NCBI GenBank assembly: GCA_965228875.1
Contig: OZ245843.1
Span: 3,268,616-3,332,615, forward strand
Direction: 5' to 3'
Length of the DNA: 64,000 nucleotides
DNA from: Thalassobaculaceae bacterium
GTDB lineage: Bacteria; Pseudomonadota; Alphaproteobacteria; Thalassobaculales; Thalassobaculaceae
Part shown: positions 30,699 to 35,305 of the stretch, in pieces
Layout: each line of letters begins with the position of its first letter
How positions within the stretch are numbered: position 1 is the first letter of the stretch
Made by a program: the position numbers and the translations under genes
The notes under the pieces: generated by a model
Told to the model about the DNA's origin: nothing
The model's input: the letters and a program-made list of their open reading frames with translations, nothing else
Databases searched by the model: none

Positions 30699-32390
30699 AT
30701 GACCGATCAGCTCACCATCACGCTGGCGCAGCTCAATCCCCGCGTCGGCGACATCGACGGCAATATGACCAAGCTCCGCAAGGTCCGCGCCCGCGCCGCG
30801 GACGAGGGGGCGGATCTGGTGCTGACCGCCGAGCTCTACGCCTGCGGCTATCCGCCGGAGGATCTGGTGCTGAAGCCGATGTTCGTCGCCGAGGTGCGCG
30901 ACGCCGTCGAGGCGCTGGCGGCGGAGACGGCGGATGGCGGCCCGGCAGTGCTGATCGGCGCCCCCTGGGCCGAGGGCGACAGGCTCTACAACGCCATGCT
31001 GCTGCTGGACGGCGGCTCGGTGCAGGCGTCGCGCTACAAGGTCGACCTGCCGAACTACGGGGTGTTCGACGAGAAGCGGGTGTTCGATGTCGGGCCGATG
31101 CCGGGGCCGGTCGACGTGCGCGGCGTGCGCATCGGCCTGCCGATCTGCGAGGACATCTGGACCCCGGACGTGGTCGAGTGCGTGAGCGAGACCGGCGGCG
31201 AGATCCTGCTGGTCGCCAACGGCTCGCCCTTCGACAGCCAGAAACTGGACAACCGCCTGCAGCACGCCACCTCGCGCGTGGTCGAGAGCGGCCTGCCGCT
31301 GGTCTATCTCAACCAGGTCGGCGGCCAGGACGAACTGGTGTTCGACGGCGCCTCCTTCGTGCTCAACGCGGACCGGTCGGTCGCCGCCCAGATGCCGGCC
31401 TGGGAGGAGGCGGTGCTGACCACCACCTGGACCCGCGGCCCCGACGGCTGGACCTGCGCCCCGTCGGCGACGGTGGAACCGAAGACCGGGCTGGAGGCGA
31501 CCTACCGCGCCATGGTCGTCGGCCTGCGCGACTACGTCACGAAGAACGGCTTTCCCGGGGTGATCCTCGGCATGTCGGGCGGCATCGACAGCGCGCTGTC
31601 GGCGGCGGTGGCGGTCGACGCCCTCGGCCCCGACAAGGTGCGCTGCGTGATGATGCCCTCGCCCTATACCAGCGAACACAGCCTGGAGGACGCCGCGGCG
31701 GCGGCGACCCTGCTGGGCGTCGACTACACCTCGATCAATATCGGCCCGGCGATGCAGGCCTTCGAATCCATGCTGGCCGATCAGTTCGCCGGCACGACGC
31801 CCGACATCACCGAGGAGAACATCCAGGCGCGCTCGCGCGGCATCACCCTGATGGCCCTGTCCAACAAGTTCGGCCACATGGTGCTGTCGACCGGCAACAA
31901 GTCCGAGATGTCGGTCGGCTACGCCACGCTGTACGGCGACATGTGCGGCGGCTACTCGGTGCTCAAGGACGTCTACAAGACGACCGTGTTCGCGCTCTGC
32001 CGATGGCGCAACGCCCACCGGCCGGCCGACTGCCTCGGCCCCGACGGCCCGGTGATGCCGGAGCGGATCATCACCAAGCCGCCCTCCGCCGAGCTGCGCC
32101 CGGACCAGAAGGACGAGGACAGCCTGCCGCCCTATCCGGTGCTGGACGCCATTCTGGCCGAGTTGATCGAGAACGAGACCCCGGTGGCCGACATCGTCGC
32201 CAAGGGCTTCGACAGCGAGACGGTGCTGCGGGTCTGGCGTCTCCTCGACCGGGCGGAGTACAAGCGCCGCCAGGCACCGCCCGGCGTCAAGCTGACCAGC
32301 CGGTCGTTCGGCAAGGAGCGGCGCTATCCCATCACCAACGCCTTCGTCGGCGTCTACCGGCCGAAGAAGGCGCGCGCGGCGGCCGAATAG
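30699..32390 (+). CDS. nadE: Glutamine-dependent NAD+ synthetase
   Basis: Nitrilase domain (GYPPEDL, LPNYGVFDE, ICEDIW) plus SGGIDS, TGNKSE, PSAELR. Confidence 0.97.
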   Translation: MTDQLTITLAQLNPRVGDIDGNMTKLRKVRARAADEGADLVLTAELYACGYPPEDLVLKPMFVAEVRDAVEALAAETADGGPAVLIGAPWAEGDRLYNAMLLLDGGSVQASRYKVDLPNYGVFDEKRVFDVGPMPGPVDVRGVRIGLPICEDIWTPDVVECVSETGGEILLVANGSPFDSQKLDNRLQHATSRVVESGLPLVYLNQVGGQDELVFDGASFVLNADRSVAAQMPAWEEAVLTTTWTRGPDGWTCAPSATVEPKTGLEATYRAMVVGLRDYVTKNGFPGVILGMSGGIDSALSAAVAVDALGPDKVRCVMMPSPYTSEHSLEDAAAAATLLGVDYTSINIGPAMQAFESMLADQFAGTTPDITEENIQARSRGITLMALSNKFGHMVLSTGNKSEMSVGYATLYGDMCGGYSVLKDVYKTTVFALCRWRNAHRPADCLGPDGPVMPERIITKPPSAELRPDQKDEDSLPPYPVLDAILAELIENETPVADIVAKGFDSETVLRVWRLLDRAEYKRRQAPPGVKLTSRSFGKERRYPITNAFVGVYRPKKARAAAE

Positions 32391-32420
32391 CGCCCGCCGA
32401 ACCAGCCAACGGGATCCCCG

Positions 32421-33764
32421 ATGACCCTCACCGTCCGTTTCGCGCCGAGTCCGACGGGGCTTCTGCACGTCGGCAACGCCCGCCAGGCGCTGATCAACTG
32501 GCTCTACGCCCGAGCCCATGGCGGGCGGTTCCTGCTGCGCTCGGACGACACCGACACCGAGCGTTCGACCGCCGAGTTCGCGGCGAAGATCGAACGGGAC
32601 CTCGCCTGGCTCGGCCTGGAATGGGACCTGTTCGCCCGCCAGTCCGACCGGCTGGAGCGGTACGCCGCCGCGGTCGAGCGGCTGAAGGCAATGGGTCGGC
32701 TCTACCCCTGCTACGAGACCGCCGAGGAACTGTCCCTCAAGCGCAAGCAGCAGCTCTCCGCCGGCAAGCCTCCCGTCTACGACCGTGCCGCCCTGGCGCT
32801 GACGGACGCGGAGCGGGCGGCGAAGGAAGCCGATGGTATCCGCCCGCACTGGCGCTTCATGCTGGAGCACGAGACCGTCGCCTGGGACGACCTGGTGCGC
32901 GGCGAGAGCCGACAGGACATGGGCTCGCAGTCCGACCCGGTGCTGCTGCGCGCCGACGGGCGGCCGATCTACACGCTGGCTTCGGTGGTCGACGACATCG
33001 AGCTCGGCGTCACCCACATCATCCGCGGCGAGGATCACGTCACCAACTCCGCCGCCCAGATCCAACTGTTCCGCGCGCTCGGCTCCGAGCCGCCGGTGCT
33101 TGGTCACACCTCGCTCATCGTGGCAGCGGATGGCTCCGGCCTGTCCAAGCGGCTCGGCAGCCTCAGCCTGGAGGACCTGCGCGAGACCGAGGGGCTGGAG
33201 GCGATGGCGGTGAACTCCCTGCTCGCCGGCCTCGGGACCAACGAGGTCGTCGCCGCGACCTCCCTGGAACGGCTCGTCGAAAGCTTCGACATCGCGCGCT
33301 ACGGGCGCGCCGCGCCGCGGTTCGATCCGGCGGAGCTGACGCAGATCAACGCCCGGATCCTGCACGAGACCGAGTTCGCGGCCGTCGCCGAGCGGCTGGC
33401 CGGCCTCGGAGTGGACGGCGGCGAGGCGTTCTGGACCGCGATCCGAGGCAACATCGCCAAGCTCGCCGACGCCGTCGAGTGGTGGCGGGTGGTGAACGCG
33501 CCCACGGCGCCGGTTATCTCGGGGGAAGACGCCGGGTTCTGCGCCGCCGCCGCCGACCTGCTGCCGGAGGGAGAACCGACCGCCGAGACCTGGGGCATAT
33601 GGACCGGTGCGGTGAAGGCCGAGACCGGACGCAAGGGCAAGAGCCTGTTCATGCCGCTGCGCAAGGCGCTGACGGCACGCGAGCGTGGACCGGAACTGGG
33701 CGATCTGTTACCACTCCTCGGCCGCGACCGGATCGTTTCCCGGCTGCGCGGCGAAACCGCCTGA
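32421..33764 (+). CDS. gltX: Glutamate--tRNA ligase
   Basis: [22 protein letters not shown]. Confidence 0.95.
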
Positions 33765-33778
33765 GGAAAGAGGACCCC

Positions 33779-33847
33779 ATGTTCGCGCGCCGCCCGCTCA
33801 CTTCGATCGGCACCGCGTTCTACACGACGGCCGAGGTCTGTCGCTGA
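33779..33847 (+). CDS. Putative 22-aa leader peptide upstream of cysS (MFARRPLTSIGTAFYTTAEVCR)
   Basis: RBS GAAAGAGGA 4 nt before ATG; single Cys (TGT) at penultimate codon; pairs with sequence reaching the cysS SD. Confidence 0.5.
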   Translation: MFARRPLTSIGTAFYTTAEVCR

Positions 33848-33907
33848 TCGCGCCTGCGCATTCCGCGCCCGTGACAGCCTGAAACAGACCTTTCGGAGTC
33901 CCCGACC

Positions 33908-35305
<1,398 letters not shown>

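Follow-up and report, generated by a model that had tools for sequence, protein, structure and literature searches.

A candidate cysteine-tRNA-sensing leader reading frame upstream of cysS in the Thalassobaculaceae

Introduction

How might expression of cysS, which encodes cysteine–tRNA ligase (CysRS), be adjusted to the supply of charged tRNA-Cys? The question is raised by a 64,000-nucleotide stretch of DNA from a Thalassobaculaceae bacterium (GenBank contig OZ245843.1; the whole stretch is referred to below as the window, and all features described here lie on its + strand), in which a 22-codon upstream open reading frame (uORF), whose single Cys codon is its penultimate codon, occupies the spacer between gltX and cysS. 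For aminoacyl-tRNA synthetase (aaRS) genes, the leader-ORF control described so far is mostly transcription attenuation of the trp kind, in which regulatory codons come in runs. The element described here would show that a single rare codon, held at a fixed place in a conserved peptide, suffices, and that such a leader can act on translation, not on a terminator. We put the chances at about even that the uORF is a ribosome-mediated, Cys-tRNA-sensing leader that controls cysS without a terminator, probably at the level of translation; in the window's clade, a hairpin masking the cysS Shine-Dalgarno (SD) sequence would be the most likely output, as judged from predicted folds.

In the proposed model, the uORF is translated and its rare, wobble-read UGU codon, placed zero to four codons before the stop, would report, through the ribosome that reads it, how much charged tRNA-Cys is available. 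In the window's genus, the unoccupied RNA would fold into a long irregular hairpin, with the last seven uORF codons (33826-33852) as its 5′ arm and a 3′ arm (33870-33900) that would extend into the cysS SD. Ribosomes that finish the uORF and terminate would allow the hairpin to re-form, giving low cysS initiation; a ribosome awaiting Cys-tRNA at UGU would cover the 5′ arm, leave the 3′ arm single-stranded and so permit the synthesis of more CysRS. Of these steps, we infer uORF translation, stalling at UGU, SD release and the response of cysS from the comparative and structural evidence presented below.

A short reading frame conserved in front of cysS

The uORF (33779..33847) starts with ATG at 33779, ends with TGA at 33845-33847 and encodes the peptide MFARRPLTSIGTAFYTTAEVCR; it is preceded by an SD region of its own, GAAAGAGGA (33766..33774), and its sole Cys codon, TGT (33839..33841), is codon 21 of 22. 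It lies in the 143-nt spacer between gltX (glutamate–tRNA ligase; 32421..33764, stop TGA at 33762-33764; NCBIfam TIGR00464, 310 bits, cutoff 290), the upstream gene, and cysS (33908..35305, ATG at 33908; NCBIfam TIGR00435, 508 bits, cutoff 340), the putative target gene, whose SD, GGAG, is at 33895..33898. A first-pass annotation, made from the letters of the window, had proposed a cysteine-sensing leader at this place; the coordinates that it gave for the ORF, the Cys codon, the pairing strands and both ribosome-binding sites (RBSs) were all correct when checked on the sequence, and the identities of gltX and cysS are borne out by these matches above curated cutoffs. An open frame at the uORF is unremarkable by itself, because the GC content of the window is 68.8% and the reading frame of the uORF is open from 31178 to 33847, over 889 codons. 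The above-chance signal is the conservation of the uORF, not its mere openness.

To follow this conservation, 41 relatives were searched by DNA and cysS was searched in all 63 genomes of the family. It was located in 60, and in 58 of these the upstream DNA could be evaluated, two being dropped with a contig end 46 nt upstream or a gene start at the contig end. The uORF stands 5′ of cysS in 34 of the 58 evaluable genomes and in 8 of 17 genera, at a total of 35 loci. With the genera numbered, the positive genomes are distributed over g1, the window's genus (9/11), g4 (1/1), g9 (1/1), g11 (2/2), g3 (6/6), g2, which is Nisaea (10/10), g13 (4/4 read) and g10 (1/1; divergent and tentative). The short ORF with a C-terminal Cys that the first-pass annotation had proposed to look for in relatives is thus present in 34/58 genomes with its Cys invariant, and its claim of an element tied to cysS and marked by that codon holds, with TGT in 35/35 loci. 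The uORF was not found in the other 24 of the 58 genomes, namely two reduced g1 genomes, seven of g5, five of g14, four of g32 and one each of g6, g7, g8, g12, g15 and g33; in most genomes without it, cysS lies close behind another gene.

A pattern search made independently over the order, which holds these same 63 genomes, returned 27 matches from 26 genomes, all of them at cysS, with a single match per genome except for two in G070, which has two cysS copies that each carry a uORF; a reversed-pattern control gave none. The window's own genome holds no second copy of the leader (next-best match, E 0.027). A broader pattern scan of contigs returned 11 real cysS leaders among at least 119 matches listed, the others being chance matches, and the uORF-bearing public records among the matches listed are titled Thalassobaculum, Nisaea, 'Alpha proteobacterium BAL199' and Thalassobaculaceae.

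At all 35 loci the uORF is directly upstream of cysS; it is 22-25 codons long, with its stop 54-95 nt 5′ of the cysS start. Across five genera its frame contains no indels, while the length of the downstream spacer varies over those 54-95 nt. By eye, most of these loci have an SD-like GGAG, GAGG or AGGA at 5-13 nt before the start codon of the uORF; in three g13 loci it is weak. The neighbouring gltX adjoins cysS in 21 of 30 loci of relatives, and directly precedes cysS in 23 of 40 other alphaproteobacterial families sampled (best cysS matches, one genome per family). It is not adjacent in g3 (six genomes), g11 (two) and g13 (four), and the uORF is kept before cysS all the same; therefore, the uORF belongs to cysS, not to gltX.

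The encoded peptides are MFARRPLTSIGTAFYTTAEVCR in g1, MFARRPLTSIGIALYTTAEVCR in g4, MFARRTIASIGIALYPTAEVCC in g9 and VVWTKTTSGRPLPAFTAAERCRRHV in g10. In g11, the peptide reads M/V-VARR(T/N)PTAQGLAHYTAAELCR, with TTG or GTG as the start codon, in g3 MFARR(P/T)IA(S/T)LGIALYPTADICR and in Nisaea MFSRKL(H/Q)DVI(N/S/G)(V/I)PAF(L/I)AGDLCR(A/I), for example MFSRKLHDVINVPAFLAGDLCRA; g13 has MFSRRNFVILGLPAFMAVEICRR plus three peptides that end in PESC, PESC and SKLC. Inspection by eye revealed neither a lipobox before the Cys, as a lipoprotein signal peptide would have, nor a hydrophobic run of 18 residues, as a transmembrane peptide would have, and both candidates were set aside. When seven genus representatives are compared, the in-frame translation scores 2.51 per residue by BLOSUM62 and the two shifted frames 1.47 and 1.17; restricted to codons 2-16, the scores are 1.97 in frame versus 0.87 and 0.71. 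Codon position 2 is the best conserved in the same representatives (0.68 versus 0.52 and 0.52), and among 18 unique sequences from g1, g4, g9, g11 and g3 the variable columns at codon positions 1, 2 and 3 number 13, 5 and 16. By these comparisons the uORF is probably translated.

An invariant UGU codon

The Cys residue is encoded by codon 21 in 32 loci and by codon 22 in three, with the stop zero to four codons further on. The sensor codon is TGT in 35 of 35 loci, which share ancestry and are not 35 independent trials; the sole extra Cys, directly after it in the g9 leader, is encoded by TGC. This is the rare choice in the window, whose 33 ORFs with high GC at third codon positions (GC3; 15,140 codons) use TGC 122 times and TGT 14 times (14/136, ~10%), and in gltX and cysS together the counts are six and none. 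The codons flanking TGT vary by genus (GAG GTC, GAG CTC, GAC ATC, GAT CTC, GAA ATC, GAG TCC, AAA CTC or GAG CGC), and the bases around it, (T/C)CTGT(C/T)G, are nearly invariant. Either a wobble-read codon is wanted at this place, or the U is needed in pairing, or both.

There is also a low probability, in our estimate, that a high-gain sensor is made from one codon, the obligatory UGU at codon 21, acting jointly with the peptide. In such a sensor, the peptide in the exit tunnel, with RR, G, an aromatic and an acidic residue at fixed distances from the Cys, would slow UGU decoding or peptide-bond formation, or would bind free cysteine, as TnaC does tryptophan, and the output would be the translational opening of the cysS RBS. 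If true, this would be a sensor of aminoacyl-tRNA or amino acid, of the arrest-peptide type, for an aaRS gene, and one codon would replace the codon runs of classical attenuators.

Predicted pairing between the uORF end and the cysS SD

The predicted minimum free energy (MFE) of 33765-33925 is −59.4 kcal/mol (z −2.31), a stability equalled by 3 of 200 shuffles. The MFE fold contains a long irregular hairpin (33831..33896) composed of helices P1, P1b and P2, plus 33826-33828 paired with 33898-33900. P1 joins 33831-33841 with 33884-33896 by 11 pairs with a 2-nt bulge and holds G33895 and G33896 of the SD, P1b joins 33843-33852 with 33870-33878, and the apical P2 joins 33856-33859 with 33865-33868. 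The UGU codon sits within P1, where U33841 pairs with A33884. Three of the four SD bases are paired in this fold, and in the free leader the SD is predicted to be unpaired with a probability of 0.23. Both clade A and clade B keep the SD as (T/C)CGGAG. On the letters, the strand CCGAGGTCTGT (33831-33841) faces ACAGACC (33884-33890), TT (33891-33892) and TCGG (33893-33896), and GTGACAG (33871-33877) is a further strand that can pair with it. The Cys-codon strand has three candidate partners in all (33825-33830, 33871-33877 and 33884-33890), the first of which would form a local alternative hairpin (33825..33843) by pairing CGACGG (33825-33830) with CUGUCG (33838-33843), the Cys codon included; RNAalifold returned this hairpin for 18 clade A and B leaders, with six pairs, none of them changed on both sides.

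Complementarity was measured between the last eight uORF codons plus stop and cysS positions −32 to −5, against 300 dinucleotide shuffles each. In the window, the duplex has an energy of −20.5 kcal/mol and a z of −3.2, and the pairing of the Cys strand with the anti-SD strand that had been read from the letters is both part of the MFE fold and supported by this test. The mean z is −3.0 in g1 (n=9), −2.3 in g4, −1.9 in g9, −2.0 in g11 (n=2) and −3.0 in g3 (n=7), and for these five genera the predicted probability of pairing between the Cys codon and the downstream spacer is 0.55-0.97.

Since MAFFT alignments of mixed clades lose register, a covariance model from g3 was used instead for comparison between clades. 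RNAalifold had given, for the seven g3 leaders, one 27-pair hairpin that spans the leader from ACG-GCC in the uORF through GGAG and the following bases, reaching G2 and G4 of the SD, with one compensatory pair in its apical stem and an outer helix that survives a 26-nt insertion in one leader (L156). The model built from g3 only found 11 of 12 clade-A leaders at the exact expected coordinates (E 2e-4 to 0.38; L158 was missed). Of the 26 rows of the resulting alignment, eight, which were matches at other coordinates, were removed before counting, and 18 true leaders were kept. Two pairs beside the Cys codon change from C-G and A-U in g3 to G-C and G-C in 10 of 11 clade-A rows (GAC AUC...GAUG versus GAG GUC...GACC), and 212 of 297 clade-A cells form standard pairs, versus 98.5 ± 7.5 with partners shuffled. 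The P1 helix is thereby supported, although not proven, as a predicted structure. Every clade has a GC-rich hairpin directly after the uORF stop, its sequence differing from clade to clade.

A further helix, P0, in which the uORF RBS would pair over a long distance with the start region of cysS, was considered and is not claimed, its mean z being −1.5 in g1 and about zero or positive elsewhere. The window MFE contains it as 33770-33773/33913-33916 plus 33777-33785/33903-33911 (12 pairs; 33770-33785 with 33903-33916); its counterpart in g3 is GAUCCAUG/CAUGGAUC (at the loci, GATCCATG / CATGGATC), a perfect 8-mer in most g3 leaders. Only in g1 and g9 does the complementarity reach significance against shuffles, and the palindrome CCATGG accounts for part of it. 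The cysS SD of g13 (GGAGG or AGAGGG; four loci) lies ~20 nt from the start codon, and the gap holds a small hairpin whose stem varies by species (GCCCCG/CGGGGC, GTCCC/GGGAC or GGCCC/GGGCC), as if to bring SD and AUG together.

A leader without a terminator

No terminator-like site was found in 33300-34100, and five or more T in any 8 nt occur in none of 20 clade A and B leaders. A T-rich octamer is present in 8 of 10 Nisaea and 3 of 4 g13 leaders, and the Nisaea patches are not beside a stem (by eye). Without a terminator, control at translation is the natural reading. The masking calculations that bear on it covered 32 of 35 unique leaders, three lacking a recognisable SD. With the downstream RNA folded alone, the unpaired probability of the wider RBS window, from SD to AUG, rises from 0.25 to 0.49. 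The response of the SD itself is taken up below.

Weighing the proposal and its alternatives

Several results weigh against a Cys-tRNA-sensing leader acting through the SD. Classical leaders hold two to seven regulatory codons, and a single codon makes a weak sensor. The invariant TGT could also be kept for the predicted base pair U33841-A33884 and not for decoding speed. The calculated release of the SD by a ribosome at the Cys codon is weak: with a 28-nt footprint masked there, the unpaired probability of the SD rises from 0.23 to 0.28 in the window and from a mean of 0.31 to 0.36 in g1 (0.33 when only the RNA 3′ of the footprint is folded), and a scan of A-site positions showed no peak of SD accessibility at the Cys codon (30/35 loci). 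Of the fold that the first-pass annotation had wished to see compared with and without masking, the pairing itself stands, and SD release is nearly flat. The mean duplex z is −0.8 in Nisaea (n=10), −0.8 in g13 (n=4) and +1.05 in g10, and anti-SD pairing was not detected by this test in the ten Nisaea genomes, in g10 or in g13; the predicted folds for Nisaea pair the Cys codon with upstream bases of the uORF itself, and the uORF end does not sequester the SD. The covarying anti-SD pairing that the first-pass annotation had proposed to test for is found in five genera, with its two compensatory pairs, and is not found in Nisaea, g10 and g13. Even where present, the covariation probably represents one or two events between two clades, in an alignment fitted to the structure, and MAFFT alignments of clades A and B and of clade A gave, with RNAalifold, only a local hairpin of six or seven pairs with no two-sided change. 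Finally, the ratio of nonsynonymous to synonymous differences (pN/pS) among the 18 unique sequences lies at 0.53-0.69 in frame, compared with 0.66-0.80 and ~2.5 in the two shifted frames, a modest signal for coding that scarcely beats the first of these. The anti-SD mechanism, which is modelled from predicted folds, may thus operate in part of the family only.

Some of these points could be explained by constitutive coupling between the uORF and the hairpin, in which each passing ribosome unfolds P1 without any sensing of cysteine and the Cys codon is kept as bases of the helix. The position of UGU inside P1 (U33841-A33884), with nearly invariant bases around it, fits such coupling, as do the unusual single regulatory codon and the weak SD release in silico. 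However, Nisaea, g10 and g13 retain the Cys codon with partner strands that differ or with P1 undetected, unrelated cysS uORFs of other families are also marked by Cys, often by several Cys codons, and a Cys codon marking the leader of a Cys-tRNA ligase is hard to call coincidence. We regard constitutive coupling as unlikely.

The clades without an anti-SD helix would be accounted for if a Cys-sensing uORF had a transcriptional output of the tna type, through Rho-dependent termination or polarity. A ribosome at the uORF end would then hinder Rho loading on a C-rich spacer, and termination at the uORF would expose that spacer. Every clade has a C-rich, G-poor spacer between uORF and cysS (C 0.33-0.46, G 0.26-0.33), with a nearly G-free stretch in Nisaea, and the Cys codon, always zero to four codons from the stop, fits the need for a ribosome at the ORF end. 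Yet, at just 54-95 nt, the spacer is short for a rut site, most of it is predicted to be structured, and in clades A and B its C-richness is explained as the complement of the G-rich 5′ arm of P1. A Rho-dependent output is, in our judgement, distinctly unlikely.

A nascent-peptide arrest would place the signal in the peptide itself: the 22-residue chain in the exit tunnel would stall the ribosome at or near the Cys codon or the stop upon sensing a small molecule (free cysteine, for example), or would sharpen the response to Cys-tRNA. TnaC, where arrest responds to tryptophan, is a known example of the first kind. Conservation at the peptide level goes beyond that of typical leader peptides: basic residues at 4-5, Gly at ~11, an aromatic or hydrophobic residue at 14-15, an acidic one at 19 and a hydrophobic one at 20 are fixed relative to Cys21 across genera despite different nucleotides. 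The length from AUG to Cys is also fixed, and no part of the chain would yet have left the tunnel. Against arrest, three g13 peptides are strongly divergent (MIYPANIK..., MRIRREIG... and MQSRRESE...), pN/pS is only moderately low, and some of the conservation possibly comes from RNA structure; we also know of no arrest motif, of the RAPP, SecM or TnaC type, in the uORF peptide. We consider arrest improbable.

Peptide-level conservation, fixed length and constant linkage to cysS could also mark a small protein with a function of its own, together with CysRS or in sulfur metabolism, whose gene simply shares a transcript with cysS. This is very improbable: the product has 22 residues, no family match and no exact counterpart in a collection of 15 billion proteins (the last being expected for 22 codons), its conservation peaks at the Cys codon and the stop, beside the RNA helices, and it is lost without replacement in 24 of 58 genomes. 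Scarcely any probability attaches either to an untranslated structured RNA (a processing or stability element, or a protein site, for example for CysRS, as in thrS autoregulation) with the ORF as an accident of high GC, since open frames are indeed common at 68.8% GC, as the 889-codon frame attests, and the fold beats shuffles, but start, SD, exact length and stop are kept across eight genera without indels, conservation is highest in frame, and there is neither a conserved GCA anticodon-mimic loop (by eye) nor an Rfam match.

Relation to known leaders

A Cys-tRNA-sensing leader of cysS would rest on no new principle; what is unusual is the combination of a single, always-UGU codon at a fixed position, a conserved peptide and the absence of a terminator. 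In the leaders of ermC and cat, and in SecM-secA and MifM-yidC2, a leader ORF stalls ribosomes within the 5′ arm of a hairpin whose 3′ arm hides the next SD, with no terminator. The cysS leader appears analogous in having a short leader ORF, a conserved nascent peptide and no terminator, and in the five genera with the predicted helix its putative stall site would likewise lie in a 5′ arm whose partner hides the SD; whereas those systems report an antibiotic or the state of secretion or membrane insertion via the nascent chain, the trigger proposed here is a scarce aminoacyl-tRNA at one codon. Classical transcription attenuators, such as trpL, hisL, pheL and the pheM leader of pheST, share with it the principle of a ribosome that senses charged tRNA, on a short ORF with its own RBS before the cognate aaRS gene. 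They differ from it in having several regulatory codons and, in the proteobacterial cases, a terminator/antiterminator pair; the cysS leader has a single regulatory codon and alternative partners for its Cys-codon strand, but no terminator followed by a U-tract was found.

At the equivalent point of gltX-cysE-cysS, Bacillus has a T-box, which binds uncharged tRNA-Cys directly and contains no ORF. The place in the gltX...cysS order and the signal, charging of tRNA-Cys, would thus be the same, whereas the Thalassobaculaceae element is ORF-based and no T-box was matched: an Rfam scan of 33400-34300 gave nothing at or near a gathering score, only five chance-level matches (E up to 10) with no T-box among them. 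The element also offers a compact, easily mutated system in which the minimum number of codons needed by a ribosome-based sensor could be addressed.

The first-pass annotation had known of no leader-peptide control of cysS in alphaproteobacteria, which is to be amended, as such control was predicted in 2021. The predicted cysS uORF attenuator uORFC-8-2 (Brewer et al. 2021, RNA Biol 18:2417; PMC8632094) is given for Rhodobacterales only, with 145 examples; it has tandem Cys codons, usually at positions 14-15 and mostly UGC, followed by a 3′ U-run and an intrinsic terminator, so that its action is on transcription, and it is a bioinformatic prediction. uORFC-8-2 resembles the present leader in being an alphaproteobacterial uORF located exclusively upstream of cysS, with a conserved AUG, conserved Cys codons in a stem and predicted ribosome-mediated, Cys-tRNA-dependent attenuation (PMC8632094). 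Compared by description, the present leader differs in belonging to the Thalassobaculaceae, in having one Cys, at 21-22 and always UGU, in lacking a U-run, in its helix to the SD and in its conserved peptide.

Several Cys codons also mark other reported leaders, including the leaderless 10-residue leader with two Cys before cysS in Deinococcus deserti (de Groot et al. 2014, PMC4007540) and the polycysteine attenuators in leaderless small ORFs of mycobacteria (bioRxiv 10.1101/834739); here, there is one Cys. A literature search found no description of the Thalassobaculaceae cysS leader, and a uRBS survey of S. meliloti (PMC13285730) does not mention cysS or gltX.

Among the 40 other families, at least four have an intergenic ORF 5′ of cysS with Cys in its last six codons, the products ending in ...GGPRWCCA, ...NTCCCRSKICA, ...RRCICGICA and ...IATRC before the stop (L209, L235, L204 and L206). 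Another alphaproteobacterial family (L028) has a cysS uORF that encodes MTCRSCRKNTVKTPA (MTCRSCRK...). The Cys codons of these outside-family uORFs are mostly TGT, and several of the uORFs end in Cys-Ala-stop; at one further locus (L221), the uORF is followed by a clear stem plus a U-run. Cys leaders at cysS seem to be widespread and diverse in Alphaproteobacteria. The family-wide case, together with the cysS uORFs in five further families, suggests repeated evolution of Cys-sensing leaders in alphaproteobacterial gltX-cysS spacers, and such Cys-codon leaders escape genome annotation.

Transcripts, a promoter-like motif and variant loci

RNA-library contigs (Logan) from two studies span the uORF and the 5′ end of cysS in apparent relatives. 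One RNA-Seq contig has no differences from the window over 33777-33863, the other nine differences and three gaps over 33777-33956. The contigs are compatible with transcription and no more, being blind to starts, ends and levels and possibly including DNA carry-over.

A candidate promoter-like motif (33686..33714) lies in the 3′ end of gltX and consists of TGGACC (33686-33691), a 17-nt spacer that is followed by TACCAC (33709-33714), and TG at 33706-33707. It is located inside the gltX 3′ end wherever gltX adjoins, and in loci without gltX the motif, GTGGACC-N13-15-TCTG-N-TA, is found 60-90 nt 5′ of the uORF (g3, g11 and g13) or 5′ of cysS (g12 and g15); the loci concerned are the window, L012, L013, L022, L029, L030, L150-L152, L156-L159, L167, L168 and L179. 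Within gltX, the motif uses rare codons, namely TTA at 33708-33710 (3 of 1458 Leu codons in the high-GC3 ORFs of the window) and CCA at 33711-33713 (1 of 43 Pro codons in gltX and cysS). A sigma-70 consensus scan returned no promoter-like site, and the motif does not fit that consensus. Its distribution suggests an internal cysS promoter that overlaps the C-terminal coding region of GluRS or, alternatively, a gltX remnant retained in rearranged loci.

Several loci depart from the common arrangement. The two reduced g1 genomes (G002 and G010; ~1.5 Mb, AT-rich; L025 and L026) have lost the uORF and kept gltX-cysS and the cysS RBS (CGGAATCCAAGAC-ATG), which looks like regulatory decay, possibly in a symbiotic lineage. 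In G070 (g3; 88% complete, 3% contamination), each of the two cysS copies has its own uORF and promoter-like motif (L150 and L152), and this may reflect a true duplication or two strains in one assembly. In g6 and g32, where the uORF is missing, cysS lies close behind a gene whose product ends in ...HPTAAEEFVTMR (L016, L177 and L181). A similar ...HPTAAEEFVTMR-type gene is found in g12 ~160 nt 5′ of cysS, with the promoter-like motif in between (L030); we presume that the gene is related to glutathione or dihydrolipoamide-type disulfide reductases, which it resembles.

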